64,000 bases of DNA from a virus. Below, piece after piece: positions 4,448 through 64,000 of this stretch. Where the stretch lies: positions 51,173 to 115,172 of the IMG/VR virus record IMGVR_UViG_3300042904_000308; one strand, written 5' to 3'. The position numbers were made by a program, and so were the translations under genes. Within the stretch, counting starts at the first letter, position 1; each line of letters starts with the position of its first letter. The notes beneath the pieces were generated by a model that saw only the letters and a list, made by a program, of their open reading frames with translations, ran no database searches and was not told the DNA's origin.

Positions 4448-5032
4448 CTAGCGGTACTCCCAGGCGTGGTCACACACTTCCCACCAGTCGAACACCCGAT
4501 GCAGACGCTCGTGCTGAGGCACCTGCTGGTTATAAGGCTTGTCGATGACATAGACCTGATCGAACAGGCCGCTCGCTGGCATCTCCGTCGTGTGGTGTGG
4601 TGCATCCTCGACGACTTTGGTGAGGCCCAGGCGTCGGGCCGCATCAATCTTGCGATTCCCTGGTTCCTTCTTGCTCGTCGTCGTCACCTGCATCGGCGGG
4701 AAATCATTGCGGTTCAGCCACGCCTCGATCCACTCTTTCATATGTGGCAGGCGATCCGAGACAACGAACAAGTCCTGCCCGTGGTCGTAGAGCTCCCACA
4801 CGGCATCCTCCGCGTTGGCAACAGGCGGCACACGCAGCGTCCAGTCACGGCTGAGGAAACATTCCTCGCCCCACACGTAATCACCGTGCTCTTTCGGCTG
4901 CGCTCTCCAGAACTCCCAGTCCTCGATCATATGCGTGCTGTACTCGGTCCCGAAGTAGTCGTTACAGCTTCGGACAGAGGCTCCGTCGAGGTCTGCCAGA
5001 ACGCTGTCAAAGTCGATGAGCCATCTCGACAA
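4448..5032 (-). CDS. 5'(3')-deoxyribonucleotidase (HAD, NT5C-like)
   Basis: IDFDSVLAD motif I, VVEDAPH and KPYN. Confidence 0.8.
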   Translation of the reverse strand: MSRWLIDFDSVLADLDGASVRSCNDYFGTEYSTHMIEDWEFWRAQPKEHGDYVWGEECFLSRDWTLRVPPVANAEDAVWELYDHGQDLFVVSDRLPHMKEWIEAWLNRNDFPPMQVTTTSKKEPGNRKIDAARRLGLTKVVEDAPHHTTEMPASGLFDQVYVIDKPYNQQVPQHERLHRVFDWWEVCDHAWEYR

Positions 5033-5033
5033 A

Positions 5034-5567
5034 TCAGTTCATCCTTTCAAACGACTCCCACTCCAGCAGCGACGTCGGCAGTCGATAAAACGGCTTCGGC
5101 TTTCCGCCGTCCTGAAAGTGATCGACCTCCAGATCAGGCAGCAGCTCCGCGAGCTTGTCCATCGTCATTCTGTAGGAGATAGCTTCGTTCTTACTGTCGT
5201 ACACAAATACGGTAACAGGTCTTCCGCTAGACGTTTGCCAATTACAGAGCTGTTGTACATTATCGAGTTTCAGTTTAATGATCTGGTCCCTGCCGACCCC
5301 CTTAATCTCGGTGAGGAAGTGGCGTGTGATCTTTCCCCTTTCATCTATGAGATGATCGAACCTTTCACCCTGAGCCTCACAGAGGAAGTCGGGCGTGTAA
5401 CGTAAGAACGGCGAGAGCCGCATGAAGTGGTCAAAGGGCGGACGCTGCATCCCGTACTCAACGTATGTGATGTCGTTCTGTCTGCACCAATGCTTGAATA
5501 CTCCCTCGGCCATGTCGCCCATCTTCTTAAACCGCACGTTAAACGGTTTATCCTTGAATTGGGACAT
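5034..5567 (-). CDS. PD-(D/E)XK endonuclease
   Basis: GDMAE...YTPDF...TEIKG. Confidence 0.65.
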   Translation of the reverse strand: MSQFKDKPFNVRFKKMGDMAEGVFKHWCRQNDITYVEYGMQRPPFDHFMRLSPFLRYTPDFLCEAQGERFDHLIDERGKITRHFLTEIKGVGRDQIIKLKLDNVQQLCNWQTSSGRPVTVFVYDSKNEAISYRMTMDKLAELLPDLEVDHFQDGGKPKPFYRLPTSLLEWESFERMN

Positions 5568-5580
5568 GTCTGTAAATCAA

Positions 5581-7480
5581 CTATTTCCCTTCTGACTGAC
5601 GCCGCTGCTCGAAGTACGCTTCACGAAAACCCTCCGCGAAGCCTGCGTAGTTGACACTGATGAAGAGCGATATCAGTGTGATGATCGTGATCGTGTCGTC
5701 GCTGACAGGCCAGTCACCTGTGAACAACCGCATGACCAGCAGACCCAGCAGTATGAGAGAGATAACCATGTATGCCTCCTGAAACGAGATGTCAGCTGAC
5801 TAACTCTCGATAAAGTCGATGAAGTCTCCGAAGCGTGACTCGAAGCGCGGCCAGTAGCGGTTGCGTACCTGCAGCTTGCCGCACGGCTCGACGCTCACGC
5901 CGTCCATCACAGACACGTCAATCGTCGTGAACTCCTCCCCCTGTCGTACCCGCGCCTTGAAGACGGCGGGGTACCGCTTGTCGATGGGGTCTTCCTTCCC
6001 CTGCAGTCGCTTGACCTCGGCCTGCACGTCACGCAGCGGCACCTCTGCCGCCTGCTTCAGCAGCTCGGGGATCACGTCCTGATGCTCTTCGTCCCGCACC
6101 AGCGGCAGGATCGCTCGCACCTTGCTGACGCCAGCGTTCAGCATCAGCTCGATGGCACTGTCCACCCGCTCGGCATCGGGCGCGAGCATTGGCAGAACCT
6201 CGCGGCGAATCCGCAACAGGTCTTGCACAACGCGCCAGCCAAGCTCGATGTGTGGCCCCATCGCCCAGGTCCGCAGATCGGGGCAGCTTCTGGCGAGGTA
6301 GTACTGGTTCTCGTCAAACTGGTGCAGCATGTTGGCAAGCCTGAAAAAATTGAGCTCGATACTTCGCTTGGTGTCGACGATTTCCGACTCGGCTTCCTCC
6401 GCCGCCTGGACCTCCGCCTGTGTAATATCTCCGTAGACATCGGCGTATCGGACGAGCTCACCAGAGCCGTCCACTATCCATTGATCCTTAGCCACTTATC
6501 AGTTTCACTCCAGCCTCAGCAAACGCATCAAGGACCGCGTCCGCTTCAATTAGCAGGTGCTCGTGAGGAAGGGAGTGCTCTGGCATCTCCTCCCACGGCA
6601 CCCAGTCTTCACCATCATTCACGGTGCTCCAGATCGCCTCGGCAACCAGCCGCCGAAACTGCTCAGGATGTCCCTGCTGCACCACCGTCACGACCACATC
6701 TTCCAGAACTCAAGCAGGACGATGATCAGCGGGATGTTCCACACCACGCCGCGCACAATCTCCGCTTCCGATTTCTCCACCGTCTCCCGCCTCATCCTCA
6801 GGGCGAGCTCAGGCGCAAACAAATTGATCGTAATCATGACCGTCACCGCAAACGCGACGATCAGGAATGATCCAAATACAATCCAGTCCCACATTTAATT
6901 CATTCTTCCTTTACCAAGACACTCGACAGATTTTGTCGTCTGACCTGTTGACTGATCCATCGTGGTACTGATCCGATACCGCGTAGGGCGGTTTGCCCAC
7001 CTGTGTGCCGCGCCCCAGCCCTTCAGAAACAACTGCAGCAGGACGTTAACAACGACGGCAACAATCAACCCCAGCGCTAGCCAGCCAACAATCCAGAGCG
7101 CGACTAACGACTCAGATTCCATTGCGTTGTTCCACTCTTCCTTATCACTCTACTCCTACAAGCTCATAGACAGGCTCAAGTGTCGGCACGCGCTCGCACT
7201 CTTTCTGTCGGTAGATCGTCTTTCCAATCATCTTGGTATCCCAATGACAGCGGTACTCATTCTCGTAGAAGTAGCTCTCGCCTCCTCCGCCGCCGAGCAG
7301 AGAAGCAGCCAGCAAGATGACGACCGTAATACCGACGATATGCGCAAAGATAACACCGATCATAGCCAACATCGGCACAAACGAGTAGTATCCGAACTCA
7401 TTTTCAAGTGTGTTATTGTGGTTTCCCCACCAGTCAAAGTACCGCTGCACTGGGCGAAGAGCTCTGACTACATACGTCAC
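5581..7480 (-). other. cluster of hypothetical CDSs (5581-5769, 5800-6495, 6488-6697, 6688-6894, 6895-7122, 7145-7480), several membrane proteins
   Basis: Contiguous minus-strand ORFs with RBSs. Confidence 0.55.
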
Positions 7481-7484
7481 ACAA

Positions 7485-8441
7485 CTAATCCTTTCTTCCT
7501 TTTTGTACGCGCTCCGTGAGCGATCCCTTCACTGGGTGTGGCTCAACGGGCTCGGGTTTCGGTTGTGACCATGTCGTCTTCGCGGGGTAGAACGTCACAG
7601 GCGTGCTGCCCGTCGGACCCTCGCGGTTCTTGGCGATGATAATCCGAGCGTCCCGCTCCTCTTCCAGTGGCGGTGAACCGTTCATCTGCTCGTAGTAGTA
7701 CGGTCGGAACGGGAACCAGACATTCTCCGCGTCCTGCTCGACCGCGCCCGAGTCACGGATGTCCGACATGTTCGGTATCTTGTTCTCGCGACCCTCAACA
7801 CTACGATTCAGCTGTACCAGTGCGATGATCGGAATGTTGAGATAATCAGGCCGAGCCAGCGCACGCAGGTTGCTGCTGATACGGGCTACTCTTTCGTTCT
7901 CGTTCACCTTGGCGGCATCCCTCAGCAGGGAGAGGTAGTCCACGACGACCAGCCCGAGGGGAGGCCCAGGGGCGGCGGCTGCGCGTTCTGCCCACTTCTC
8001 CGCGTCGTCGGCCAGCCCCTCAGATGTGAAGGTGGTGTCGGCCATTGCGATGGGGTACTGGCGCAGCTCTTCCGCAGCCTGCTTGACCCTGCGAAACTCC
8101 TCAGGGCTGAGCATGCCGCGCACGATCTTGCCGCCTGGGATCATCGTCATGCTGGAGAGCATGCGGTTGACCATCCGCTCGGCGGTCATCTCCAGCGAGT
8201 AGAAGAGCACGCGGTTATTGGCCTTCGCCACGTTCTGCGCGATGTTCAGGGCGAGGGATGTCTTCCCTACCCCTGGACGCGCTCCGATAATTGTCAGTGT
8301 GTCGGGCTGGAGCCCTCCCGTCAGCTCGTCGACGCGATGAAAGCCAGTGGGGATGCCGATTGTCTCGACACCCCCACGTTTCTGCCGCTCTCCGACGATC
8401 CCGAGGTAGCTCTTCGCCACGTCCGCGATCAGACGTGCCAT
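7485..8441 (-). CDS. dnaB: replicative DnaB-like helicase (C-terminal ATPase domain only)
   Basis: GIPTGF, GARPGVGKT Walker A, SLEM, VVDYL, QLNR, DIRDSGAVEQDA and IAKNREGPTG. Confidence 0.93.
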   Translation of the reverse strand: MARLIADVAKSYLGIVGERQKRGGVETIGIPTGFHRVDELTGGLQPDTLTIIGARPGVGKTSLALNIAQNVAKANNRVLFYSLEMTAERMVNRMLSSMTMIPGGKIVRGMLSPEEFRRVKQAAEELRQYPIAMADTTFTSEGLADDAEKWAERAAAAPGPPLGLVVVDYLSLLRDAAKVNENERVARISSNLRALARPDYLNIPIIALVQLNRSVEGRENKIPNMSDIRDSGAVEQDAENVWFPFRPYYYEQMNGSPPLEEERDARIIIAKNREGPTGSTPVTFYPAKTTWSQPKPEPVEPHPVKGSLTERVQKGRKD

Positions 8442-8447
8442 ATATCC

Positions 8448-9414
8448 TCATTCCCAGTTAATATGCAGCACATAGTGGTCTTTCAGTTCAAACGTTCCCT
8501 TCCACCATTGATTGACAACCGTGACTTCACCGCTCAACAGGCGAGCCATTTCCTCGACGGTGTCAAGCTCGATAGCGGGGAGCGTCTGGATCAGTGTCCT
8601 TGTGTAGTAGGTGCGCCCATCGTAGTAGCGACCGTCGTTCGCGTCGGTGCCCCGCTGATGGATTTGATGGTCCTGACCTTCAGACTTCCAGTCCTCGATC
8701 CACTCATCCCGTTGCTGCTGCTCGAAGATCGTGAGCCCTCGCCGTGTCTCAAGGTAGTCCCAGCTTGTGTACCCTTCCTCGCACCCTTCGAACTCATGCT
8801 CGAACATCCCTGGGATGGGATCGGTGTCGATCAGATTGACGGCGAAAATCATGACATCCTCCCCGCCACCTGAGCCTCAACCCGCGCTCTCTGAGCCTTG
8901 GCAGCGCGTCGGTTGGAGTAGATCGCTGCACCGATGCAGAACGCGGTGGCAAGGAGCCAGAGCAGAATTCCTGAGACGACAACCTGATCCATTGTCGTCC
9001 CTGGTATCCCCGTCTCTCTCCACGACCAGAGCTCGACGATGAGGGCATACAATCCGAAGCTGACCGCGATACCAACGAGGATAATGAAACCCACGCCGAA
9101 GAACACAAACAACGCACGGTCGCTCCAACGGACTGCGCGACGATCCCACACGTCTTCTTCCATCATGGTCACTTCCCTCCGTCGATCCAGCGAGTCACGA
9201 CGTTGTCACCACTAACGAGCCACACAATGCCACCGCAGACGTACCCCGTCGTCACCACAACGCCCGTGAACCCGACCAGCGCGATCAGGCCTGACGACAG
9301 GCCGTCCTCCAGCCCGATAGCAATGCTCAGGGCGGGTACGGCAATCAGCCAGGCCAGCACGCACGCCACCGCAATCATTCGACCTAACTCCGACCTCGGC
9401 CAGCTCATTCCCAC
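8448..9414 (-). other. three hypothetical CDSs (8448-8852, 8849-9172, 9169-9414; the last two are membrane proteins)
   Basis: Overlapping stop/start junctions. Confidence 0.55.
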
Positions 9415-10106
9415 ACCCCCTCTGGAATCTCGAAGTAGTTCGTTTCAGGTGGAGCCTGATAGCTCACGGTCTTCTTGCTCCCTTCCCGCTGGCCCGTGAC
9501 CCCGTTCAGGAATCCATACACGGCTCTCAGCGGGTCTTTCGCTTTGCGTTTCTTTCTCAGCTCCCTCAGGACCGTCTTCGGCCCGAAGCGGTCGAACTGC
9601 TGGCCGAGGTAGAACGTTTCTTTGGGGCTCAGGCCTCGGCCCAGGATGTACTCGACCTCTCGCACAGCCTTGCCGATTTCTGGCGGCAGCTCTTCCGCGA
9701 GGCCGCTCTCATCGCCCGACTCCAGCTGCGCGATGCGGTTGTGGAGCCGCGTGATCGTCTTCTCCAGGTCCGTGATCCGCCCCTGCTCGTCCTCCTCTTC
9801 AGCGAACGAGAGCTTCTTGTCGCTCCCCGCGACGAACTTGGGGATCACGATGCTCGTACCAGAACGCTCGATGTAGGGGTCAATCGTCCCGCCTGCGCAG
9901 GCAGGGGATTCGAGCCACTGCAGCGCGGCCCGAACCGTCGTCCGCGAGTGACCAGTGAGCCGAGCAAGCTCACTGACCGTCACATCGAGATGCCCCTGCA
10001 GGTCCGACCGCAGGAGCAGTGCCATGAACACCTTGAGCTGGGCCTCCGTCATCACCGACAGGTGATCGATCAGCCCAACCCGTACCATTGAGAACTGTGA
10101 GGGCAT
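9405..10106 (-). CDS. replication initiator-like HTH protein
   Basis: N-terminal wHTH (TVSELARLTGHSRTTVRAALQWL), a DnaD-like C-terminus, and a position upstream of the helicase. Confidence 0.6.
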   Translation of the reverse strand: MPSQFSMVRVGLIDHLSVMTEAQLKVFMALLLRSDLQGHLDVTVSELARLTGHSRTTVRAALQWLESPACAGGTIDPYIERSGTSIVIPKFVAGSDKKLSFAEEEDEQGRITDLEKTITRLHNRIAQLESGDESGLAEELPPEIGKAVREVEYILGRGLSPKETFYLGQQFDRFGPKTVLRELRKKRKAKDPLRAVYGFLNGVTGQREGSKKTVSYQAPPETNYFEIPEGVWE

Positions 10107-11138: not shown

Positions 11139-11346
11139 TAATCCAGTGTTATCTTAAGCTAAATGTCTAGGGGCTCCGCCCCCTCGTTTTCAGATACCGT
11201 ACGTTAGGCCGCTCGGTAAAGTGTGAGGCCCAGGCTTGAGAAGGGTGCTGTGTTCCTGTGTGCCTTCATCAATGCGCTCTGTACCATGTTTCCGATCAGT
11301 TGCCGTATGTTCTACCCCCGCCTTCCTGACAATAAATACAGTCCTC

Positions 11347-13028: not shown

Positions 13029-13846
13029 GGTTATTAACGTGTCAAGAGCAATTGTTCACTGCGAGACTCCTGACACACATTTGACACACCCGTCAGTGAG
13101 ATACGTGAAACTGGTAGGCTCCATAATCCCGTATCGAGATAGGCCTGCGCCTCGATCACGCTCTCGGATGCGAGCGTTACGGTGGCCGAAAAGAACCATG
13201 TCTTGATGCGATCCTCATACCACGACACCCCCAGTTCACCAACAACCGCTGGCACGATTCCTGCGACATCAAACCGTTCCACTACTGCGCGAGGGATGCG
13301 TATCGGTACCACCTTGGCTCTGCGTTCAACGCCACCAGTGGCAATCCACTCCTCCGTCGAGAGGAGAAAGGCTGCGTCATCAGCTGACACAGCCTCCACA
13401 ACACCACTCACGAGCGCCACGTAGTTAGCCATCAACACGCTCGTCACTTGCTAACGTGAAGTGAACGTACTGCGTGTGCATGAGGCCCAGCAGCTGGGAC
13501 ACGTGAGCGCTCTCAACTGGCGCGTCGTCGAGTGTTTCCAGCATGTGTTCCGAGAGCCCTCGCTGGATCAGTCCCTCCAGTGCGACATCAGCACGCACGA
13601 GCGCCTGAATCTCCGTCGGAGATGGAAGCTCATCACCGTGCAACGCCACCATCGCGGGACCATCGTCGTCCGTGCCGACCGACAGCCCCCAGTCGTTGGG
13701 GCTCTGCACCATGACCTCGGTGTACTTGCTGGAGCAGATCACCCACCCCTCGTCGGGGTTAAGCTCGCTCAGCGGCGTTGCGCTGGTCTTGAGCGGGTAG
13801 CCGAGCTCGGATGCGAGCACGTCTGCCGCTCGAATGTGGTCGAACA

Positions 13847-14266
13847 TTACGCTGCCCTTTCACTGAACGCCCCCAGCACCTGGGCCTCTCCCATGTGCTT
13901 GCAGGGCACGTTTCGATAGGTAAACTGTGGACACGTACATGATACGGCACGCCCCTGCGAGACATCGAGCTGGACCGTGTAGCTCTTGCCAATCTCGCTG
14001 TAGCTGCCAATCTCGACCTCCCGCAGCGGTGAAACCCTGCCGTAGAACGTTCGGGCTCCCTCGATGGTGTCGGCGGGAATCTCAATCGGGTCGCAGTAGC
14101 CTTTCCCGTCGAGGATCGCGTCCTCCATCAGCGTGTAGAGGTACGCTCGCTCCTCGTGGGTGAACTCGCTGATCCGTGCCAGCAGCGTCTCTGGCGTGAC
14201 CTCGACCGAATACACTTCGCGAATACAGAGCTCAGCTACCATGTTCGTCCTCCTCCATGTCATCAA
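13847..14266 (-). CDS. SWIM zinc-finger protein
   Basis: CTCPQFTYRNVPCKH. Confidence 0.75.
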   Translation of the reverse strand: MMTWRRTNMVAELCIREVYSVEVTPETLLARISEFTHEERAYLYTLMEDAILDGKGYCDPIEIPADTIEGARTFYGRVSPLREVEIGSYSEIGKSYTVQLDVSQGRAVSCTCPQFTYRNVPCKHMGEAQVLGAFSERAA

Positions 14267-16564
14267 GTACCTGCTGCCAGAACGCCTGCCAGTCCGTCAC
14301 TGCCACGAATCCGTCGTCTGTTACCTCCATCATTACGTCCTTGCAAAATACAGCGCTCGCTCAAGTGCCGACGAGTGTTCGAAGTGCGCCGACAGGTCGA
14401 TCACCTGCAGCGGCGAGTGCCCGAGGTCGTGCTCGTCGACGAACTCCCGCACCATCTCGATCAGCTCGTCGCTCGCTCGGTCCTGCTCCAGCTCGCCCAG
14501 TGCCCTCACCCACTGCGGGTACGGCGCGGAGTGCTCGTCCAGGCTGGCCTCGCTGAACTCGTCAGCCGCAAGCTCGTCCTCGAACCAGACGCTGACCTCG
14601 CTGTCGTCGCTGAAGCCGCGCCACTCGATCTGGTTCAGGATGTGGTCCCGCTCCCACTCAGCCGCCCGTTCAAGCATGCGCTTCCACTCGCCGTAGGTGC
14701 GCGTACACCAGACCTTGTTCGCCTCGTACTCCTCGGCGTAGTCGATCATGCGGTCCAGCACGTCGCCAATGGCTGCTGCGGGGTTGCGCCACTCGAACTC
14801 GATGGGCCACGAGACGTCGTTGATAGTGAAGAAGAGCAGCCTGTCCTCCCCCTCACCCGTGAGGCTCAGGGTCAGGTTCGTGGGGAAGTGGGCGCACTGA
14901 AAGACGCCCGTCGTAGACCCGCCACCCCGAACCAGGGCCAGCGCACTCCTCAGGCGTGCGGCATCCTCGTAGTCAAGGAAGACGCACTCCCCCTCCCCCT
15001 GGGCCTCAATGAGCAGCCGAATGTAGTCGTGGGTCTGGTAGATCGTCAGGAGGTTGCCATCCTCGTTCATGATGTCCCAGCCCGATTGTTCCTCCTGCTC
15101 CATGTTCAGGTAGTAGCTCACTTGGCCTCCTCCTCCGCGATCAACCGCTGGACTTCCTCCTGTACCCACTCCCTGACGTCTCCGTAGACCGCGAGGAAGG
15201 GTGTGAGGATTTCAGGCAACGTCGCCATCATCACTTCGGCTACGGCCAGCTGCTTCTCGTAGAAGCTAGGACCGCTGACGAGCCCGTACATGCCTGAGTG
15301 ACCGCGTATCGTCGAGGCTTCGAGGTTGGTGTAGTCAACGGTGTTCCGCAGCCGCTTCAGTGACACCTTCGCGTTATGGAACACCGTTCGCACCATCTGT
15401 CGCACGATGTCACGCGCCTCCTCACAGGCGTCGTCGAGCTCGGTCGCGTTGACCAGCGCTGTCGCCTGTTCGTGCAGGTAATCTTCGTAGGTATCATTGA
15501 TGATCGAGTACGCGCTCTGCGTTCCCTCACGCTGACGATCATCGACGCGGGTCAGCGTGAAGTAGCACAGCTCATCAATGTGTGGCTCAACGATGCCGAT
15601 GACGGTGTATGCCACACCGTTGATTGTCTCAGGCTCCGTGAACCTGAACTGCACCGAGGCTCTGCCTGTCAACCGCATAATGGCCTGGTTCGAGCTGTTG
15701 GGGAGCGGGATCGTCCGCTGCCAGTGGCTCATCATCGGAAGCAAAGAGCTATAGATCATGGTCCCTCCTCTGAAAAAACGAAAACCCCTCAGTCAGAAAA
15801 CGCGAGGGGCAAAATGCCGATTTATTTTTCGAGGCACTTTTGCTAAGTGCGCCAGAACAGCTGGTGCCGCACAACCCGCCCGTCGAGCGTCACCACTGGC
15901 TCAGCAGGCTGGTAGGTAATGGAGTCGTCAAACTCCACAGTAACGGCTATTGGCTCTCCGACGACGAGGACGTTCCCCTCCAGATCGACCACGTCGGTTC
16001 GAATCTCAACCCTCGCTCGTATTGGTATTGGCTCAGTCATTACAGGTTGCCCTCCTGGGATTTTCTGACTCCCTCCAGTGTGTGTCTGACGATCTGCCTC
16101 AGCCAGGGCACGTCCTCAGGCAGGACGGGAATGCTGCCGTAATGGATGCGCACGATGCGCGGCTGAACCACGAGCACTGTCAGGTACGTATAAACCTCGT
16201 CTTCGTCGTCGGCCTCCCACACGAGGTCATCGAGCGTGCTGTACGATCCGTGTACCCCCGACGTGGAGCAGAACAGCCAGTTCAGGGTGTAGTCGGTGCC
16301 ATCCACGAAGATTCTTCGTAGATGGTCGATGTCAGGAATGTGTGCTACGTGACTGCTTGTTGTTCGTATCGGTGTTGGGTCAGTCATCGTAGTACCAATG
16401 GACATCCAAAACCTCCTGAAGACTGTCGTTGATAAACGTCACGCCGTCGACATCCGCCCCCTGTGCTCGCAGATCGTCGAGAAACTCCTCCAGCTGCTCC
16501 TCACTCTCGACCTCGAAACTGACGTCGCACGTCACGCGCAGATCGAGCTCGGCTCGTACCTTCC

Positions 16565-17014
16565 TCATGCCGCTTCCCGCTCCTCTCTGGCAATCTCCAT
16601 CAGCGACTTCGTGATCTGCTCGATGGCGTTCGTGTAGCGATTGATGCGCTTGCGGGTGTACCCCGCTCGATTCATGGGGTGCAGGTGGTCCCACAGATCG
16701 TAGAGCTTGACGGTCATCGCCAGCGCGTCACCACTCTGGCAGATACGCTCGATGTACGCCTCGTAGCTCTCCAGCTGAGGGTCAACGCGGGTGAGCAGGC
16801 GGATCGCGGTGAACTGAGTCAATGTGAGGCCCAGCCTCGGGGAGCCGAGCGAGGCCCAGGTCGCCAGCCCGTCCTCGATCAGATCGTGGAGCAGGGCGAC
16901 AATGTACTCGTCGCGGGTCTGCGCCATATCCGCCACCCGCCAGGGGTGCCTGTCCTTGGAGCGGTTGTGAAGAAACGTCTCCACCGTCAGCACATTGTCG
17001 AACGATCTGCACAT
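16565..17014 (-). CDS. HD-domain phosphohydrolase, RelA/SpoT hydrolase (small alarmone hydrolase)-like
   Basis: HP.RVA, ALLHDLIED, LLTR, YIERI and VKLYD motifs. Confidence 0.75.
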   Translation of the reverse strand: MCRSFDNVLTVETFLHNRSKDRHPWRVADMAQTRDEYIVALLHDLIEDGLATWASLGSPRLGLTLTQFTAIRLLTRVDPQLESYEAYIERICQSGDALAMTVKLYDLWDHLHPMNRAGYTRKRINRYTNAIEQITKSLMEIAREEREAA

Positions 17015-17015: not shown

Positions 17016-17699
17016 CTAGTCTCCGATCTGCGGCGAGAGGTTGACGTTCCGCCCCGCCTCGTAGCCCCGCCCGAAGGCCTGCTGGTTATGGCTGTAGGCT
17101 CGTGTGGCCTTGCGTGTGCGCGGGTACAGCTGCTTGAAGGCCATCGCCACTTCGTTGTCCTTGACGACCACCAGCGCTGAGCCGTGCTCGACGTTCTCAG
17201 CCTCGGCCTTCTGCGCGTCCTTCATCGCGTCGATCACCCCCTCGACCGCGCCGAGGAAGAAGTTGTTCTTCCAGGTCTTGGTGTGAACCTGCGGCGGCTT
17301 GTCGGCCAGCGAGTCGTTCGCCAGTCGCGTGAACGCCTCGTCCAGATACAGGTACAGGTGCTTGATGACGATGAAGCTATGCGGCTCGGCCACCACCCGC
17401 ACGACACCGTTGCCCATCGTGATTGCGCGACCGAAGTTGAACTTGGCGATCTGCCCGATCAAGGCCTGCTGCCAGGTGCTCTTCGCGTCGGTCGTGACCT
17501 CGTGGCTGTCGTAGTCGCTCTTGCGCTGCTGCCCGTGCAGGCGCTGCGTGACCTCGTCCATCGTCAGGCTGTGGCGCGTCAACAGCCGTGTGAGGCCTGC
17601 CGCCGCCGCCTGGGCCTCCCCCAGGCTCTCTGTGCGGTCGGCCAGCGTCATCAGGTTCTCGATCTTGTTTAGCAGCTGGTTCCAGTTCACGTCACTCAT
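17016..17699 (-). CDS. DUF2786-domain protein
   Basis: KIENLMTLA...EAQAA...LLTRHSL N-terminus, FFLGAVEG, and GYEAGRNVNL C-terminus. Confidence 0.7.
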   Translation of the reverse strand: MSDVNWNQLLNKIENLMTLADRTESLGEAQAAAAGLTRLLTRHSLTMDEVTQRLHGQQRKSDYDSHEVTTDAKSTWQQALIGQIAKFNFGRAITMGNGVVRVVAEPHSFIVIKHLYLYLDEAFTRLANDSLADKPPQVHTKTWKNNFFLGAVEGVIDAMKDAQKAEAENVEHGSALVVVKDNEVAMAFKQLYPRTRKATRAYSHNQQAFGRGYEAGRNVNLSPQIGD

Positions 17700-43793: not shown

Positions 43794-44074
43794 CACGGTG
43801 AGCTAATGGGATATGTCACATCGATCAGCCGAGTCGAGGAGATGCTGTCGAGAACCGATATCGATGGCCGCTGGGTTGGCATGGACGTCAGGGGAGAAGA
43901 GATTCAGTTCCACGCATCTGATGACCTGGGCCACACCGAAGCCTGGGTGGTTGTCGCCGCTCATGTGCTGGAGAGGCTCAGCGACGAGGCGCTGATCAAT
44001 TTCCTCTTCGATGAGCTCGCGACTGCCCTGCAGGAATCCGTGAACATGGGGGGAAGGACGGTGTATATCGCGCA

Positions 44075-45394: not shown

Positions 45395-45648
45395 ATTGCC
45401 CTCTCCAGGTGACATGATGTCATTCTCCAAACACATCGATGAGCAAGCCTGCCTGCTCGAAGACGTCTTTCAACAACCACTTCAACGCAAGCAGATTATC
45501 GATGACCTCCTCTACGCCCTCGAACACGCCGAGCCCGACGACTGGGATCGCGACCGCAGGGCACGGTTCAGGCACCTCAAACACACCCTGAGCCTCCTCA
45601 AACACCACACCAACCAATTCCACACCTAATCACGAAGGGAGAAGGCAC

Positions 45649-54845: not shown

Positions 54846-55805
54846 CTAAAAGCCGAGCTTGGCGTACTCCTCCTTGAGCTCGTCTTTCGCCACCTGCGCG
54901 TAGATGCGCGTGGTCTGTGGGCTGCTGTGACCCAGCAAGTCCTGCACGACTTCCAGCCGCTTGGTCTTGTTGAGGGCCATCGTCGCGAAGGAGTGCCGCA
55001 GCACGTGTGGCGTCAAATCCTCTGGAAGCTGGGCCTCCCTGAGTCCTTCCTTGAAGGCCGCGTAGGCCGAATGCGGGGTCATCGGCTTGCCCATATCGAC
55101 ACCGAACGACCGACCAGCCTCGCCGTAGAACACATAGTCCGTGTACGGGTGATCCCCGATATACCGCTTCAGACGTTCGATCAAGTGCGCAGAGAGGGGC
55201 ACAAACCGCTCTTTCCGCCCTTTACCGATAATCTTGACGCCATCATCGAGCACGCCGTCCTTGCGCAGCGTCAGAATCTCCTCGATGCGCAATCCCGCCT
55301 GGAACATCACCCGAAACAGCAGACCGTACTTTTCCGCCGTGTCTTCCTGCGCCCAACCAAAGTGCTTCGTGTTGTCATCACGGCTCAGCGCGTCCTGCCG
55401 CTTTCGGCGCAGCGCAACCTCGATGCCGTCGAGCACGCGATCAATCTCCTCGCGAGTGAGGATGGTTGGCAGCTTGCGCGGCAGGGTTTCCGCCATGATG
55501 TTCGCCATCGGGTTGTTGCCCTCGTAGAGCTTGTTGCCGATAGCCCACGCGAAGAATGTACGGACGGCGCTGATCGTCTGGTTGCGGGTCGCGGGTGACA
55601 GGTTTCTGGCCTTCGCCTCACGCACCATTCGCTCACCATCCTTGACCACCCACTGGCGCAGCGGTCTGTCGACAAGCGACTCGGCGCGGCGAAGCGCTTC
55701 CCCATAGGACGACAGCGTTTTCTCGGTGCCCATCTTTCCCGCGTACGGCAAACCGTGGCGCTTGGCATCGATGAAATCCTCAATCGTCATTCTCACAGCA
55801 GACAT
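54846..55805 (-). CDS. tyrosine recombinase/integrase (XerC/D-like)
   Basis: GLRIEE (R), GKGRKER (K), HVLRH, LGHS and TRIY catalytic residues, plus a SAM-like N-domain. Start is 55805 or 55790. Confidence 0.92.
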   Translation of the reverse strand: MSAVRMTIEDFIDAKRHGLPYAGKMGTEKTLSSYGEALRRAESLVDRPLRQWVVKDGERMVREAKARNLSPATRNQTISAVRTFFAWAIGNKLYEGNNPMANIMAETLPRKLPTILTREEIDRVLDGIEVALRRKRQDALSRDDNTKHFGWAQEDTAEKYGLLFRVMFQAGLRIEEILTLRKDGVLDDGVKIIGKGRKERFVPLSAHLIERLKRYIGDHPYTDYVFYGEAGRSFGVDMGKPMTPHSAYAAFKEGLREAQLPEDLTPHVLRHSFATMALNKTKRLEVVQDLLGHSSPQTTRIYAQVAKDELKEEYAKLGF

Positions 55806-56358: not shown

Positions 56359-57859
56359 GCGTGAAGAGGTTATCGATGGACTCTGTCTGAGATATCCACC
56401 GTGGTTTTTCGAGCTGTTGACGGAAGTCAACGCGGGAGAGCCGACGCAGTTGGAAGCGTTTCAGATTGCCTACCTCCTCGATGACTCCCGTTACAAAATC
56501 ACCAACAAGACGAGACAGGCTGGCGGTTCGCTGGTCGTATCGATGGCGAAGTTCTGGAAATGCTATCGCAACGAACAGACGAACTGCGACATCGTCTCGA
56601 TCAACAGGGCTGAGGCCCAGGGTAAAATCACGTACATCCGCAATCTGTGGGAATCGCTGCCTGCACGGTGGCGGCACCCGCTGGCTATCGACAACGCGGA
56701 GAAGATTGCCTTCCATGCGGGTCGCCGCATGTCGACGATCCGCTCCATCGCCGCCAGCGCAGGCGTGCGCGGTGGCCGCAAGGATATCGTCTTCGACGAG
56801 GCGGCACACATTCCCCTCTTCGAATCGCTCTTCGTGGCCGCGCTTCCCGCGACGGTCAGGGCCAGGGGCGGCTTCGATGTGGTCAGCACGCCGATGGGGC
56901 AGGTTGGCAAGTTCTTCGAAATCTGGAACAACTTCGAGAATCGTTATGAAGACTGGGCGCGGCATGCCTTCGTCTGGATCGACGTGTCGCAGTTCTGTCG
57001 AGCGTGCGACGAGGCCCGAGAGGTCTTCGAGTCAGAGTTCGAGGGCAACCCCGACGCCTTGGTGAACTTTGGCGAGCTTTACGAAGAATACGCCACCCCT
57101 GAATTAAAGAAAGTCGGTCGAAACTTTACCAGCGAGGAGTTCCTGCAGGAGTTCTGCGGGAAGTTCGTCGATGAATCGACCGCGTACTTCCCCTACTCCC
57201 TGATCGATCCCTGCCGCAAGCACGCGGAGCCACAGCCGCTGCCGAACGGAAGCCTCGACGACTTCAACGTGCTCAAGCCCTGGCTGACAGGCAAGCCCGA
57301 AGACAACGAGAACGACGTGACGATGGGCATTGACTTTGCCGAAGGGCGCAAGGGCGGTGACTCCACATCAGTCCAGGTCATCGAAAAGGAGCGCGACGGC
57401 AGGCTGCTGCAGCGCTACTACGCCGACCTCGACCACACCAGCGGATACGACGACTTCGACAAGCAGATGACGGAATTCAACCGCCTGATCGACGTCTTCC
57501 ATCCCGTTCGGGTCAGCGTGGACGAAACAGGCCTGGGCCGCAAGATCGCCGCCGACCTGAAAAAGGCGCACGGCGGACTGATCGAGCCCATCACCTTCAC
57601 CCATCAGAACAAGGAAGCAATGGCGCTGAACCTGCGCGGCCTGCTGGAGACACACAAGCTCTGGCTGCAGTACGAGAATAAGCGTATTCGCGGCCAGTTC
57701 CATAACATCAAGCGAAAGATTACCTCACACGGCAACGTGACCTATAGCGGTGAGCCCCACGACGACATGTTTTGGGCGATGGCGCTCGCCTGTAAAGGCG
57801 CGGGTAAGTCGCGATTCCAGATTCTCACACTCGATGATGACAGCCCTATTTCAGGGTAG
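56279..57859 (+). CDS. terL: terminase large subunit
   Basis: KTRQAGGS Walker A variant, VFDEAAH Walker B, STPMG, GIDFA, VDETGLG and HDDMFWAMALA. Start is approximate. Confidence 0.92.
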   Translation: MIWFESPSGGPRWKGLKPYLASIPPSEREEVIDGLCLRYPPWFFELLTEVNAGEPTQLEAFQIAYLLDDSRYKITNKTRQAGGSLVVSMAKFWKCYRNEQTNCDIVSINRAEAQGKITYIRNLWESLPARWRHPLAIDNAEKIAFHAGRRMSTIRSIAASAGVRGGRKDIVFDEAAHIPLFESLFVAALPATVRARGGFDVVSTPMGQVGKFFEIWNNFENRYEDWARHAFVWIDVSQFCRACDEAREVFESEFEGNPDALVNFGELYEEYATPELKKVGRNFTSEEFLQEFCGKFVDESTAYFPYSLIDPCRKHAEPQPLPNGSLDDFNVLKPWLTGKPEDNENDVTMGIDFAEGRKGGDSTSVQVIEKERDGRLLQRYYADLDHTSGYDDFDKQMTEFNRLIDVFHPVRVSVDETGLGRKIAADLKKAHGGLIEPITFTHQNKEAMALNLRGLLETHKLWLQYENKRIRGQFHNIKRKITSHGNVTYSGEPHDDMFWAMALACKGAGKSRFQILTLDDDSPISG

Positions 57860-59548: not shown

Positions 59549-60897
59549 TGGAAATGTTCAAAATCACCACGCCCATCACCAAGGCCTTCGAACGGATTGG
59601 TAAGGATGGCGTAACCCGCAAGTACATCGGTGGTCTGGCATCGTCGACAGACATGGACCTTGAGAAGGAGCGGATGGCCGAGAGCGCCATTCTGGCCTTC
59701 CGCAAGGCGATTCAGGAAGGCATCTTCCAGTCGAACGGCACGTGGTCACAGATTCCCCTCAGAAGCGGACACCGCAGCGAGTGGGATGACGTGCTCGGCT
59801 GGATCACCGACGCGACGATTGATAAGCAGTGGAATCTTTTCATCGAGGCAGAGCTGGATACCACAAACCCTGTCTCGCTAGGACTATTCGAGAAACTCAC
59901 ACGACCACAGACGCCAGGACGAGAGTTGAGCCTGGGCCTCTCCGTTGGGGGGCTGGTTGTGAGTGCGGGGCAAGAGTGGGACGAAGAGTTTCAGGACTAC
60001 ATACGGGTGTACTACGACGTCGCCCTGAAGGAAGTCTCGGTAACGTCGAATCCCGCGAACCCGAAGACATACATTCACGCGCTCGCCAAGAGCGTCGATT
60101 GGAGCAAGGTTAAGGGGAGCCGCACGGTTCTCGTTTCTGAAGAAGAACTAGAGGAGTATTTTGATATGAAGACCAAATCAGAGAATACAGACGCTCAGGA
60201 AACGAGCGAGGAAGTGGTCGCCGCTGCTGTAGAGGCATCGGAGCAGGCCGAGGTTGTCGAGCGGAGTGAAGCGGCTGAAGAAGCTGGCGCAGAGGAGCAG
60301 GTTGAGAAGACCGACGCGACCGAGGAAGCGCCAGAGGCTGAAGTGGTGGAGCGAAGCGAGTCTGCCGAGGTCAGCGAGGATGCTGGCGAGGGTTCTGTCG
60401 AGGAAGTGGCGAAAGCGACTGACCCGATGGCAGAGCTTCTGGCTCGATTTGACGAGCTTACCAAAGGTCTTGCTGCTCTCGCTGACGAGGTTGTGCAGTT
60501 GAAGGCTGGATCGACGGGTGAAGAGGCCCAGGCTGAAGCGGCTGAGAAGTCCGTGACTGAGGAGGAGCAGGCTGCTGAAGCCGACGCTTCTGCTGAGGTC
60601 GTGGAGCGATCTGCCGAAACTGAAGTCGAGCCCGAAGCTGTCGAGAAGGCTGAGACGGTCGACATCGCGGCGATCATCGAGGCGGCGGTAAGCAAGGCAA
60701 TCAGCTCCCAGGTGGGTGCGCTGGCGCAGCGCATCGAGGCCATCGAGAACGAGGAAGTCGACAAGTCCGTTGCGGTAACGCTTGATGCGGCGGAAGAGGA
60801 ATCTGACCCGCTGACCAAGTTCGCAAGCGAGACGGAAGGACTGAAAGGGCGTGCCCTGCTGACCAAGACGCTCGAACTCGCTGGCATGCAGCGCTAA
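59545..60897 (+). CDS. prohead protease fused to acidic scaffold-like domain
   Basis: GLASS..DLEKE, GLSVGG and LKEVSVTSNPANP, followed by an E/A-rich tail. Confidence 0.85.
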   Translation: MMEMFKITTPITKAFERIGKDGVTRKYIGGLASSTDMDLEKERMAESAILAFRKAIQEGIFQSNGTWSQIPLRSGHRSEWDDVLGWITDATIDKQWNLFIEAELDTTNPVSLGLFEKLTRPQTPGRELSLGLSVGGLVVSAGQEWDEEFQDYIRVYYDVALKEVSVTSNPANPKTYIHALAKSVDWSKVKGSRTVLVSEEELEEYFDMKTKSENTDAQETSEEVVAAAVEASEQAEVVERSEAAEEAGAEEQVEKTDATEEAPEAEVVERSESAEVSEDAGEGSVEEVAKATDPMAELLARFDELTKGLAALADEVVQLKAGSTGEEAQAEAAEKSVTEEEQAAEADASAEVVERSAETEVEPEAVEKAETVDIAAIIEAAVSKAISSQVGALAQRIEAIENEEVDKSVAVTLDAAEEESDPLTKFASETEGLKGRALLTKTLELAGMQR

Positions 60898-62366: not shown

Positions 62367-62912
62367 ATGGCAGACCTCCGATTGATCACCCTCGCGGATT
62401 TCTCGACCTCGCGATACCAGCAGGTTGCGGACTCCATCGACGGTGATATCACGGACATCATTGCTCAGGCTGAAGAGTACGTTGAGGGGCTCGTCGACCG
62501 ACGGTTCTCTGAGACGACGTACACGGAGTATCACTTCCCGAGGTCCGAGGAAATTTTTCTGCGCAACCGTCCGATTATCACGCTGACCTCGGTAGAGCGT
62601 CGGGCGTCGTACACCGACGACTGGACGAGCCTCGATGTCGACACGTTTGATATCGAGCTGGACGGCAAGATCGGCACGATTGTCACGAGGTATTCGGATG
62701 TCGCGGGGTATGAGCTCAAGGTGGTCTACACCGCTGGTTATGCCGCGATTCCTGCCGATGTCAAAGCTGCGGTCATCCTGCAGACAGTGATATTTGCTTA
62801 CCAAGATTTAGAGGTCTACGGGGCGGGTGACGCCAAGAAGCCTGGCATCACCTACCTGCAGGATCAGGTCGACCGCTACCTCTGCCGTTACAGGCAGATC
62901 AAGATCGCGTAG
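62367..62912 (+). CDS. head-tail connector/adaptor (gp6-like)
   Basis: VVYTAGYAAIPADVKAAVI motif. Confidence 0.8.
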   Translation: MADLRLITLADFSTSRYQQVADSIDGDITDIIAQAEEYVEGLVDRRFSETTYTEYHFPRSEEIFLRNRPIITLTSVERRASYTDDWTSLDVDTFDIELDGKIGTIVTRYSDVAGYELKVVYTAGYAAIPADVKAAVILQTVIFAYQDLEVYGAGDAKKPGITYLQDQVDRYLCRYRQIKIA

Positions 62913-62914
62913 TC

Positions 62915-63406
62915 ATGATCACTCTGCGGTTAGACATGCGCGGCATCGTGGGGCTGCGGACGCGAGTGATGAGCGCGATGCGCAAGCTCGAACAGCGCCA
63001 ACCCGCGATGGAGCAGATCAAACACGAGCAGATTATTCGCTGGATCACCAACTTCTCGACGGAAGGCGGCGAGTATGGCGGCTGGGCTGGCCTCTCGGAG
63101 ATGACGATACGCGAGCGCGGCAACAGCGGCCCGATTCTGCAGCGTAGTGGTGGCCTCTTTCAGGACGTGATCGCCCAAAGCGATGAGGGGCGGGTATCCC
63201 CTGCCCTCATCGACTGGGTCTTTCGCAATCGTGGATCGGGGCGGGGCGATCCCTTCCCCGTCAGCCACCAGACGGGCTACACGTCTCCCCTCACAGGGGG
63301 GCCAGTGCCTGCCCGAGTTATTTGGGACTTGGACGGCGAGGACGAGCAACGCGCATTCGAGATTATGGAAGATTATGTCGACAGAATCATAGCGACACAC
63401 TTCTAA
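62915..63406 (+). CDS. virion morphogenesis protein (Mu gpG-like)
   Basis: NFSTEG...WAGLS..T...ILQRSGGL...HQTG...PAR. Confidence 0.7.
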   Translation: MITLRLDMRGIVGLRTRVMSAMRKLEQRQPAMEQIKHEQIIRWITNFSTEGGEYGGWAGLSEMTIRERGNSGPILQRSGGLFQDVIAQSDEGRVSPALIDWVFRNRGSGRGDPFPVSHQTGYTSPLTGGPVPARVIWDLDGEDEQRAFEIMEDYVDRIIATHF

Positions 63407-63419
63407 TGGTGATAACTAC

Positions 63420-63911
63420 ATGACACATTTCGATATGGACGGGCTGGTTCTGCACCTTGGGCAGGTGCTGAAGAAGCAGTTCGCTGACGACATTTCTCAA
63501 ATCTACTACGGCGACGTCGTCGTGTACCCGCCCAAAGCGTTTCAGAACCCTGCTGGTGAGTGGCGCACGGCGGTCGCGCTGGTTCCAGCCTACGACAGGG
63601 AAGCGGACGGGGGCCGCAACCCAGCGTCCGAAATCCGCGACCTCGGCGTGCTGATTGTTCCTATGGTGAACATGACCCCATTTTTCGAGGCGCTGCCTTC
63701 CGAAGCGTTCGGAGAGCGGATGCTCGTGCGCCTGACGCACCGCATCCGATTATTCCTCGCCCAGCGGAGCAACATGACCCTCAACGGCAATGTCGCCCGA
63801 GCCCTCGTTGGCGATGTTGAGTGGCACTGGGCGCAGCGCGACAAGATGCCCATCCGCGCTGCCGCGATCACCTACGAAGTGCAGAGCCACTTCTCACGCG
63901 CCCACGCCTAA
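63420..63911 (+). CDS. tail completion/terminator-like protein
   Basis: Position, size and the TLNGNV motif. Confidence 0.5.
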   Translation: MTHFDMDGLVLHLGQVLKKQFADDISQIYYGDVVVYPPKAFQNPAGEWRTAVALVPAYDREADGGRNPASEIRDLGVLIVPMVNMTPFFEALPSEAFGERMLVRLTHRIRLFLAQRSNMTLNGNVARALVGDVEWHWAQRDKMPIRAAAITYEVQSHFSRAHA

Positions 63912-64000
63912 AAGCCTGGGCCTCCCCCCCCCTTCTCAGAGTTTGGTAAGCAAATCATATTGTTTTATGTCCCTTACATAGGAAAGAGGTAATGTTATGG

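Follow-up and report, generated by a model that had tools for sequence, protein, structure and literature searches.

The iterated word SCTGRGCCTC of a siphophage genome: a DNA-level signal with a possible Chi-like role

A short word, SCTGRGCCTC (GAGGCYCAGS on the other strand), is iterated in both orientations throughout the genome of a siphophage, and our results support the view that it is a genome-wide signal at the level of the DNA, and not a product of chance, codon bias or a peptide motif. The window (the whole stretch of 64,000 nt analyzed) belongs to a genome of 115 kb that closes on itself as a circle. The first 192 bp of the contig repeat its last 191 bp, as expected of permuted or terminally redundant DNA.

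The word and its copies

The decamer CCTGRGCCTC occurs 36 times in the window, where about 0.5 copies are expected; dinucleotide-preserving shuffles averaged 0.54 and never exceeded 3. This agrees with the expectation of under about one copy given in an earlier sequence-only reading, whose 36 positions, in both variants and with their strands, were all recovered exactly as written. The base that follows CCTG is G in 22 of these copies and A in 14. Position 1 takes C or G, giving the fuller motif SCTGRGCCTC. Of this form the window has 48 copies, where 1.03 are expected, and the 115-kb genome has 69. The decamer has 55 copies in the whole contig, or 54 unique copies in 114,981 bp, and the densities amount to 1 per 2.1 kb for the decamer and 1 per 1.7 kb for the S form. 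The word is short, asymmetric and sharply bounded, with 9-10 specified positions: its single-mismatch variants are at background (0-3 copies each) and its flanks show no conservation. The copies in the window are as follows (coordinates, strand, word, location).

4622..4631, -, CCTGGGCCTC, in CDS 4448-5032(-), sense, Leu-Gly-Leu
5369..5378, +, CCTGAGCCTC, in CDS 5034-5567(-), antisense; coding strand Glu-Ala-Gln
7961..7970, -, CCTGGGCCTC, DnaB-like helicase, Pro-Gly-Pro, in an insertion absent from relatives
8869..8878, +, CCTGAGCCTC, in CDS 8849-9172(-), Glu-Ala-Gln frame
10037..10046, +, GCTGGGCCTC, variant with G at position 1
11225..11234, -, CCTGGGCCTC, intergenic
13482..13491, -, GCTGGGCCTC variant
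13879..13888, +, CCTGGGCCTC, in CDS 13847-14242(-), Glu-Ala-Gln frame
14861..14870, -, CCTGAGCCTC, in CDS 14333-15121(-), Leu-Ser-Leu frame
14998..15007, +, CCTGGGCCTC, in CDS 14333-15121(-), Glu-Ala-Gln frame
16826..16835, -, GCTGGGCCTC variant, 15 nt from the next copy (16851)
16851..16860, -, CCTGGGCCTC, in CDS 16565-17014(-)
17609..17618, +, CCTGGGCCTC, in CDS 17016-17699(-), Glu-Ala-Gln frame
19304..19313, -, GCTGGGCCTC variant
20594..20603, +, CCTGAGCCTC, in CDS 20556-20903(-), Glu-Ala-Gln frame
21527..21536, +, GCTGGGCCTC variant
24983..24992, -, CCTGAGCCTC, in CDS 24917-25123(-); inverted partner of 25018, 25-nt gap
25018..25027, +, CCTGGGCCTC, in CDS 24917-25123(-), Glu-Ala-Gln frame
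26457..26466, +, CCTGGGCCTC, in CDS 26353-26619(-), Glu-Ala-Gln frame
26983..26992, -, CCTGGGCCTC, intergenic, 4 nt upstream of the mini-tmRNA 26858-26978(-); 3' arm of a short hairpin
27355..27364, +, CCTGAGCCTC, in CDS 27218-27427(-), Glu-Ala-Gln frame
27739..27748, +, CCTGAGCCTC, intergenic, within an early-region hairpin element
28448..28457, +, CCTGAGCCTC, 3' edge of CDS 28456-29700(-)
30190..30199, -, CCTGGGCCTC, intergenic; inner hairpin stem together with 30200
30200..30209, +, CCTGAGCCTC, inverted partner of 30190, abutting
30974..30983, +, GCTGGGCCTC variant
31810..31819, -, GCTGGGCCTC variant, hairpin element; inverted partner of 31820
31820..31829, +, CCTGAGCCTC, intergenic, inner hairpin stem
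32316..32325, +, CCTGAGCCTC, edge of CDS 32325-32567(-)
34235..34244, +, CCTGAGCCTC, intergenic, inner hairpin stem
38069..38078, +, CCTGGGCCTC, intergenic
38982..38991, +, GCTGGGCCTC variant
39511..39520, -, CCTGGGCCTC, intergenic
41886..41895, +, CCTGGGCCTC, in CDS 41857-42141(+), Leu-Gly-Leu frame
42329..42338, +, CCTGGGCCTC, intergenic
43973..43982, -, GCTGAGCCTC variant
45587..45596, +, CCTGAGCCTC, weak gene call at the site
46366..46375, +, GCTGAGCCTC variant
48597..48606, +, CCTGGGCCTC, 1261-aa repeat protein, Leu-Gly-Leu frame
50227..50236, -, GCTGGGCCTC variant
50523..50532, +, CCTGAGCCTC, 1261-aa repeat protein, Leu-Ser-Leu frame
52349..52358, +, CCTGGGCCTC, 884-aa protein, Leu-Gly-Leu frame
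52941..52950, -, CCTGGGCCTC, 884-aa protein, Glu-Ala-Gln frame
55028..55037, +, GCTGGGCCTC variant
56612..56621, -, CCTGGGCCTC, large terminase, Glu-Ala-Gln frame; relatives Glu-Ala-x
59931..59940, +, CCTGGGCCTC, prohead protease, Leu-Gly-Leu frame; peptide conserved in relatives
60523..60532, -, CCTGGGCCTC, prohead protease, Glu-Ala-Gln frame
63915..63924, +, CCTGGGCCTC, intergenic, followed by a C9/C10 run; equals contig position 106, where the assembly wraps around

The earlier placement of sites in helicase (7961), terminase (56612) and protease (59931, 60523) genes was correct, the copy said to lie next to the mini-tmRNA does so with respect to the Rfam tmRNA match, and the inverted pair described in hairpin copy 2 (30190 and 30200) indeed abuts within the hairpin. 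Another word, GCCTGYGCAGGC, is likewise dispersed in this genome (11 sites). It is common to the relative G001, with 8 sites there, and overlaps the decamer within GCCTGNGC.

Selection on the DNA word

The enrichment, which the sequence-only reading had proposed to compare with a codon-preserving null, stands under it: coding sequences hold 41 copies, against 6.9 (sd 2.3) after a synonymous-codon shuffle with the proteins held fixed and 1.8 after a codon-order shuffle. The tripeptide Glu-Ala-Gln occurs 28 times versus 8.6 expected (3.3-fold), and it is spelt GAGGCYCAG in 22 of the 28 instances (79% against 27% expected), GCG, the commonest Ala codon, being almost missing from them. At most site positions the relatives carry different residues, or no residues at all. 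Taken together, the shuffle excess, the Glu-Ala-Gln spelling and the residues of the relatives indicate that selection acts on the word as DNA. Not only codon choice but also amino acids are bent to keep it, which suggests that something reads the word on the DNA. The part of the earlier inference that proposed a genome-wide DNA signal is supported. Of the functions suggested with it, the stoperator-like one is not supported, while Chi-like, self-marking, DNA-organizing and nick-site functions are candidates.

That the enrichment simply follows from base composition, codon usage, a repeated peptide or a longer dispersed repeat is an explanation with practically no likelihood. The frames in use do consist of common codons (GAG GCC CAG; CTG GGC CTC), and the codon-order shuffle yields more copies than a plain base-composition model; however, coding copies use two frames that are unrelated and lie on opposite strands, the word occurs in non-coding DNA too, its flanks are not conserved, and the codon shuffles, the mismatch background and the Glu-Ala-Gln spelling refute this explanation.

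Placement, distribution and possible readers

The enrichment does not depend on position or orientation. Spacing is Poisson-like (CV 0.87) without polarity (p=0.70), the orientations are split 33:21 for the decamer and 40:29 for the S form, and copies in coding sequences are sense in 20 cases and antisense in 21, a pattern that fits selection for number and not for place. About 76% of the copies are intragenic, and their distance to gene starts and ends takes no fixed value. Overall density is 0.6/kb, from 1.12/kb in the early small-gene region, the densest, to 0.23/kb in the tail and lysis block, the poorest. An inverted partner is present for only about 7 of 55 copies, and few copies lie in hairpins.

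The scatter, the absence of transcription bias, the intragenic majority and the scarcity of hairpins argue against stoperators, promoters, terminators and RNA elements. It is therefore very unlikely that the sites are repressor stoperators or operators, or a transcription or RNA element (promoter, terminator, pause or RNA-binding site), even though the phage, which encodes a large serine integrase and so probably lives as a prophage, is probably temperate, density peaks among the early small genes, and in a few places the copies fold into hairpins of the RNA type, G pairing with U on the transcribed strand. The stoperators of Cluster A mycobacteriophages are similar as tens of copies of an asymmetric, lineage-specific 13-bp word spread genome-wide in a temperate siphophage. 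Stoperators, however, run in line with transcription and are found chiefly in the short gaps between genes, unlike the phage word, which shows no orientation bias and has about 76% of its copies within genes.

Outside this phage the word was not found at comparable density. Phages at about 50% portal identity, which differ in G+C content, hold zero copies; among the other IMG/VR contigs picked out by a scan for paired sites, none was motif-dense; and of about 1,420 bacterial genomes sampled (Actinomycetota, Chloroflexota, Bacillota, Pseudomonadota) none exceeded about 1 copy per 10 kb, most counts being close to codon-aware chance. Across 185,579 species genomes, the matches listed by the scan for paired sites were all single and unrelated, and no prophage relative was found in the genome contigs searched.

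This absence would be explained by a lineage-specific phage factor, and the main rival to the reading we favor, only slightly less likely than it, is that the copies are an array of sites bound by a sequence-specific DNA-binding protein of the phage itself. This protein might organize or compact the genome, help replication or packaging, or mark the phage DNA as self, protecting it against a phage nuclease that destroys host DNA. A sharp, asymmetric word of 10 bp, independent of position and orientation, is consistent with this, since for a monomer bound on one helical turn orientation would not matter. The sharing of GCCTGYGCAGGC with a relative and its overlap with the decamer suggest that dispersed protein sites may be a habit of the lineage, and the small ORFs, most of them orphans, offer plenty of candidate binders. 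On the other hand, no candidate protein was identified, co-evolving about 70 sites with a binder would be demanding, and the site arrays known from phages (stoperators, operators, centromeres) tend to lie between genes or to be oriented.

A genome-wide host word, such as a DNA-uptake sequence, carried through lysogeny and recombination with host DNA and not for the good of the phage, is a rather doubtful explanation. The uptake sequences of Neisseria (DUS) and Pasteurellaceae (USS) are 9-12 nt long, occur about once per 1-2 kb in both orientations, are mostly genic in favored frames and sometimes form inverted pairs in hairpins. The phage word shares their length, orientation-independence, density, frames that shape tripeptides and some hairpin pairs, and the probable prophage life and the lack of the word in relatives of different G+C content also fit. 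But DUS and USS belong to bacterial genomes, where competence pilus proteins read them, whereas the phage word was seen only in the phage, and the bacterial genomes surveyed and the search for a prophage relative count against a host source. Uptake sequences are not known outside Neisseriaceae and Pasteurellaceae, which also counts against it. HIP1 (GCGATCGC) of cyanobacteria is likewise a highly iterated short genic word kept by a DNA-level process, but it is a host-wide, methyltransferase-linked palindrome, whereas the phage word is asymmetric and the phage has zero copies of CGATCG.

It is unlikely that the word is where a sequence-specific nickase cuts or a base-modifying enzyme acts, on the model of the nicked genomes of T5 or Pseudomonas phage tf. 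The word resembles the T5 and tf nick sites in being a defined, asymmetric short word dispersed in a large siphophage genome, and the phage encodes enzymes of nucleotide metabolism (ThyX, a dNMP kinase and a 5'-nucleotidase). However, no methyltransferase or nickase was recognized among the phage proteins scanned, and this reading offers no reason for selection up to about 70 copies at a cost in protein sequence. Nick sites in T5 and tf are few (about 5-20), those of T5 lie on one strand only, unlike the two-strand split seen here, and we know of no report that they are enriched over chance or shape proteins. Moreover, CCGG and about 20 six-base palindromes have zero occurrences in the phage, which points to strong exposure to restriction cutting and argues that its DNA is not broadly modified.

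A Chi-like reading

We tentatively favor the possibility that an end-processing nuclease of the host responds to the word as to Chi, the word being kept in both orientations. The Chi-rich phages LLS (of E. coli) and MD8 (of P. aeruginosa), which lack recombination modules, provide a precedent: LLS has 23 Chi, one per 1.86 kb, and the 32 Chi of MD8 are the commonest octamer of the phage and far less prominent in the host (PMC12315714). As here, Chi in these phages is an asymmetric short word, the top over-represented k-mer, far above chance, at about 1 per 2 kb, mostly genic and denser than in the host, in phages without a recognized recombination module. In our phage, no single-strand-annealing recombinase or RecBCD inhibitor was recognized among about 70 proteins scanned, although with two PD-(D/E)XK nucleases and mostly orphan ORFs a recombination module or nuclease inhibitor of its own may have been missed. 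Chi is also rarer in recently acquired DNA (bioRxiv 10.1101/2020.08.13.249359), which the site-poor tail and lysis block, prone to horizontal exchange, would match.

Several observations weigh against the Chi-like reading. Known Chi words have 5-8 nt, fewer than the 9-10 positions specified here, and Chi in LLS and MD8 is an octamer that keeps almost entirely to a single orientation (20:3 and 32:0) and is concentrated towards one end of the DNA (PMC12315714), whereas the phage word has 10 nt, both orientations and an even spread. The hosts of LLS and MD8 are known and the reader is RecBCD, whereas here we infer the reader, and none of the sampled bacteria has a word-dense genome.

Under the Chi-like reading, selection on the DNA itself would keep the word at high copy wherever the genome tolerates copies. 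The most likely reader would be a host helicase-nuclease that processes double-strand ends, of the RecBCD, AddAB or AdnAB type, which the word may switch from degrading the phage DNA to sparing or recombining it. The phage DNA appears unmodified, is pressed very heavily by restriction and is probably permuted at its ends. Breaks could then arise anywhere and the enzyme could enter from either side, so that a dense, even spread of the word in two orientations would help the phage.

A decamer maintained in many copies by selection at the DNA level

The decamer CCTGRGCCTC, which the sequence-only reading had reported at 36 window sites, was recovered by a search of both strands with an exact match in sites, variants and strands, as compared with a mean of 0.54 and a maximum of 3 in 100 dinucleotide-preserving shuffles. 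The window corresponds to bases 51,173-115,172 of a 115,172-bp IMG/VR virus record, and this whole record contains 55 copies, 54 of them unique after circular closure. When every base was allowed at every position of CCTGGGCCTC, only A at position 5 (23 copies) and G at position 1 (12 copies) stood out, all other variants occurring in 0-3 copies each (expected about 0.3). The true word is SCTGRGCCTC, with S at position 1, R at position 5 and the remaining positions invariant; it is present in 48 window copies against 1.03 expected and in 69 copies in the genome, where S precedes 69 of the 71 occurrences of the nine-base core CTGRGCCTC. It is asymmetric, sharply defined and as long as one helical turn. 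A k-mer scan placed the decamer as the most over-represented word of its length, save for TAGGCACCTA, a local repeat word of the early region. Relative to dinucleotide shuffles its enrichment was about 50- to 100-fold, and relative to a shuffle that keeps the proteins it was 6-fold. The flanks are weakly C-rich and not conserved, and for this reason the decamer was rejected as a piece of some longer dispersed repeat. Searched for in the literature, the decamer itself matched only unrelated primers and cDNAs.

According to a simple self-trained gene caller (173 genes, 85% coding), 41 of the 54 unique copies lie fully within genes. When synonymous codons were shuffled inside each gene and the proteins kept fixed, 6.9 ± 2.3 copies (maximum 14) remained; preserving in addition the dinucleotide at codon junctions left 11.3 ± 2.3, and shuffling codon order left 1.8. 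The sequence-only reading had named the disappearance of the enrichment under a codon-preserving null as its own refutation; with that null run, the enrichment persists (41 vs 6.9), and under these shuffles the proposed refutation fails. The gap between 6.9 and 1.8 indicates that the protein sequences themselves are tilted towards the decamer. Within genes the word is carried by two unrelated reading frames, Glu-Ala-Gln in 18 of the 21 antisense copies (coding strand GAGGCYCAGG) and x-Leu-Gly/Ser-Leu in 14 of the 20 sense copies (coding strand CCTGRGCCTC). Glu-Ala-Gln is among the most over-represented tripeptides (28 observed vs 8.6 expected), and 22 of the 28 are spelled GAGGCYCAG, as against 27% predicted by codon usage; GCG, the commonest alanine codon (42%), is used only 3 times in them. 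Likewise, CTGRGCCTC spells 21 of the 50 Leu-Gly/Ser-Leu tripeptides, about 5% being expected. Relatives at 30-58% protein identity have other residues at most aligned decamer positions: EAQA in the DNA polymerase corresponds to DYVT or AYEE, EAQG in the primase corresponds to LAQ- or KLQQ, and in the DnaB-like helicase the word lies within a four-residue insertion absent from relatives, while the terminase and protease copies make use of a peptide that is conserved. Selection is thus on the DNA word, with the cost borne by protein sequence.

The decamer is therefore held at high copy number by selection acting on DNA. Chance, codon bias and peptide artefact were rejected as sources of the enrichment by the mismatch, shuffle and tripeptide-spelling results, and artefact is excluded as an explanation of the array. 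The core of the sequence-only reading, a genome-wide signal on DNA, is thus backed by the shuffles, by the spelling of the tripeptides and by the residues found in relatives.

The phage genome and the arrangement of the sites

The first 192 bp of the record are identical to its last 191 bp (window 63810-64000), barring one C in a C9/C10 run, and the assembly is therefore circularly closed, with a genome of 114,981 bp. The record carries a linear label and a completeness of about 80% despite these overlapping ends; the homopolymer that differs between them stands immediately after a decamer copy. Annotation with Pfam and PHROGs identified a siphophage with a large terminase, an HK97-type portal, a prohead protease, a major capsid protein and a 2,199-aa tape measure, Dit-type and fibronectin-rich tail proteins, a multi-domain endolysin and, for lysogeny, a large serine integrase. 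Replication is represented by an AEP primase, a family A polymerase, a DnaB-like helicase, a DnaD-like loader and SSB, nucleotide metabolism by ThyX, a class II ribonucleotide reductase and a dNMP kinase, and RNA repair by Thg1, two RNA ligases, Pnkp and RlaP; there are also two PD-(D/E)XK nucleases. Among about 70 proteins, no methyltransferase, nickase, annealing recombinase, RecBCD inhibitor or clear sequence-specific binder was recognised, most small ORFs being orphans. Nick sites of the T5/tf type are consensus words at which virion DNA carries single-strand interruptions, and such a nick target, or a modification target, is an improbable role for the decamer.

Features of the window (positions, strand, description)
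26858-26978 (-): miniature tmRNA, 121 nt (Rfam RF00023, 72.5 bits, E=2.9e-26), with a decamer copy 4 nt away; no ARAGORN call
27796-35039 (-): early-region hairpin elements, with 9 copies of GTAGGCACCTA and 8 of the junction word AGGGTAGAGG
47011-50796 (+): 1261-aa protein, just upstream of the terminase
50796-53450 (+): 884-aa protein, just upstream of the terminase

The 1261-aa protein begins with a globular part, after which come dozens of repeats of about 20 residues, of the type (S/A)LDA(S/T)GTL, which underlie the top tripeptide enrichments GTL, LDA and LSA; a Pfam search of this protein gave no informative match.

The remaining 13 unique copies of the decamer fall outside called genes, in 15% of the genome, so that non-coding DNA is about twice as dense in them. 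The strands are split 33:21 (40:29 for the S form) and the sites show no polarity around the genome, the best two-arc split being no better than in permuted data (p=0.70). Regular spacing, looked for genome-wide, was not found; the coefficient of variation of the spacing (0.87) and the largest gap (9.6 kb) are as expected for random placement. Sites are sparsest in the tail and lysis block (0.23/kb), and the early small genes are the richest in them (1.12/kb), a heterogeneity that is marginal (p=0.06). What is retained is copy number, rather than position or direction, and this argues against promoters, terminators, stoperators, pause sites, RNA-level elements and strictly polar signals.

A stoperator-like repressor site, which had been among the initial suggestions, does not agree with this arrangement. 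Stoperators are bound by the phage immunity repressor, and those of Cluster A mycobacteriophages keep one orientation relative to transcription and lie mostly in short intergenic regions, whereas the decamer is found 20 times in sense and 21 times in antisense within coding sequences and is largely intragenic (41 of 54). No repressor was identified in the phage. Sites linked to transcription are a very improbable explanation.

An inverted partner lies nearby in only about 7 of the 55 copies (24983/25018, 30190/30200, 31810/31820, 34235 and 26983), and for that reason a general role as half of a hairpin or terminator was rejected; beyond these, the decamer pairs no more than random 10-mers. There are 3-4 decamer hairpin pairs in the genome. 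In three of the early-region elements the variable inner stem consists of the decamer and its complement, which form both arms, with a G-U pair on the transcribed strand.

Relatives, host search and restriction-site avoidance

The portal has many metagenomic relatives, among them closer proteins at 63-75% identity, but never exceeds 26% identity to cultured phages, of which Streptomyces and Arthrobacter phages are the best. Pattern-based scans for related contigs reached relatives at 56% identity or less. Presence in related phages had been proposed as a check, and it turned out negative in three related IMG/VR genomes (about 45-52% portal identity), G001 (82.8 kb, 50% G+C), G002 (127.9 kb, complete, 51% G+C) and G003 (42% G+C), which lack the decamer and have no word comparable to it; in phages at about 50% portal identity the count is 0-1. 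As judged from these genomes, the decamer appears to be confined to the lineage of this phage.

A search of genome contigs yielded no prophage relative, and PolA and RNR look-ups were uninformative as to the host. The inverted decamer pair gave at least 120 unrelated single matches in 185,579 species genomes, none motif-dense nearby among the matches listed, and 55 contigs in IMG/VR, none motif-dense. Members of the Geodermatophilaceae were strikingly frequent, with 6 of the 120 matches listed (genomes L083, Geodermatophilus pulveris, L073, L098, L133, L144 and L068); one genome of the family that was counted had 92 decamers against 97 for the control, with no overall enrichment, and these inverted pairs may represent a hairpin repeat of that family, with no relation to the phage. 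Evenly drawn samples of 401 Actinomycetota, 301 Chloroflexota, 301 Bacillota and 401 Pseudomonadota were also counted for decamers, as were ten other genomes. Among the approximately 1,420 genomes sampled, none denser than about one decamer per 10 kb was found, a negative result independent of the 21 unpublished genomes included. A 4.1-Mb Caldilineaceae MAG had the most copies, 406 (reversed-word control 168), and in several 5-6-Mb Chloroflexota there were 130-213 copies where the control gave 5-26; their density, about one per 30 kb, is near the phage's codon-aware chance level of one per 54 kb.

DNA uptake sequences bias uptake by a competent host and occur about once per 1-2 kb, in both orientations, throughout a bacterial genome. 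In the phage, the density and orientation of the decamer would fit such a word, but no bacterial genome of this kind was found among those searched. The decamer resembles DUS/USS in its preferred reading frames and its inverted pairs in terminator-like hairpins (3-4 pairs). That a temperate phage carries an uptake-type word of its host is an unlikely explanation.

Avoidance of restriction sites is extreme. CCGG is absent from the genome (420-820 expected), and about 20 six-base palindromes have 0 copies each in the whole contig, among them AAGCTT (HindIII), ACGCGT (MluI), AGATCT (BglII), ATGCAT (NsiI), CCATGG (NcoI), CCGCGG (SacII), CGATCG (PvuI), CGGCCG (EagI), CTCGAG (XhoI), GGATCC (BamHI), GGCGCC (NarI), GGGCCC (ApaI), GTGCAC (ApaLI) and TGGCCA (MscI). 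This purging indicates that the DNA text is under strong restriction-driven selection, and the phage DNA is probably not generally modified. TCGA is 2.6-fold over-represented in the contig.

Possible readers of the word

Chi sites attenuate the RecBCD/AddAB nuclease and stimulate recombination; they are polar with replication or, in phages, with the exposed DNA end, and are over-represented in the host core genome. In all characterised cases they are 5-8 nt long. The nearest documented case to the decamer array is, in our comparison, that of the Chi-rich phages. Chi occurs 23 times in phage LLS (one per 1.86 kb), and in phage MD8 it is the commonest octamer, ranking only 43rd in the host; both phages are devoid of recombination modules and dependent on RecBCD, and their sites are oriented 20:3 and 32:0, respectively, and clustered at one end (PMC12315714). 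The decamer is likewise a statistically over-represented short word, and it resembles the sites of LLS and MD8 in density, in intragenic location and in the apparent absence of a recombination module; unlike Chi, it is 10 nt long and split 33:21 without polarity. It belongs to a known general kind, that of genome-wide selected DNA words, of which no described family fits on testable features.

Our best reading, which we favour only tentatively, is a Chi-like signal kept in both orientations. The departures from Chi in length and polarity may be reconciled by the way in which this phage encounters nucleases. Since the genome closes on itself, its ends are probably permuted. In a phage under visible restriction attack, breaks would arise at arbitrary places and nucleases would enter from both sides, so that a word present everywhere in both orientations would protect whichever side was entered.

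Nearly as likely is an array of sites for a DNA binder encoded by the phage itself, which would explain why the decamer is missing from relatives and from all sampled bacteria, although no clear candidate was recognised among about 70 of its proteins. Such a binder becomes more plausible given a second dispersed word, the near-palindrome GCCTGYGCAGGC, which shares GCCTGNGC with the decamer and occurs at 11 sites where about 0.1 would be expected; 8 of these sites lie within genes, in various frames.

Sites of GCCTGYGCAGGC
Window positions: 9891, 31790, 32900, 38217, 48660, 50759, 52412
Contig positions: 22561, 30788, 35140, 47318

It has 8 sites in G001 and none in G002, and the GCCTGNGC that it shares with the decamer suggests a binding site conserved in the phage lineage.

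A bolder proposal, and a rather doubtful one, is that the decamer is the recognition word of an undescribed self/non-self system. It would be either the first orientation-balanced, 10-nt Chi-type signal, read by an AddAB/AdnAB-type nuclease of an uncultured, probably Gram-positive-like host, or a phage-encoded mark of its own DNA, by which the phage genome would be spared while host DNA is destroyed. In either form, if true, the decamer could be used as a probe for host and reader.

The short words known to be maintained across whole genomes by selection on DNA are very few, namely Chi, uptake sequences, KOPS and stoperators, and Chi has been described in only a handful of species. Here, a measurable cost in protein sequence is paid for about 70 copies of the decamer, while about 20 restriction palindromes have been eliminated altogether, which makes the phage a clean natural case of selection pulling in opposite directions on the raw text of DNA. 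Should a host nuclease be the reader, the decamer would add a new motif of Chi type and offer a sequence tag by which an uncultured phage lineage could be assigned to its host; should the reader be a phage protein, the sites would constitute a new kind of genome-wide site array.
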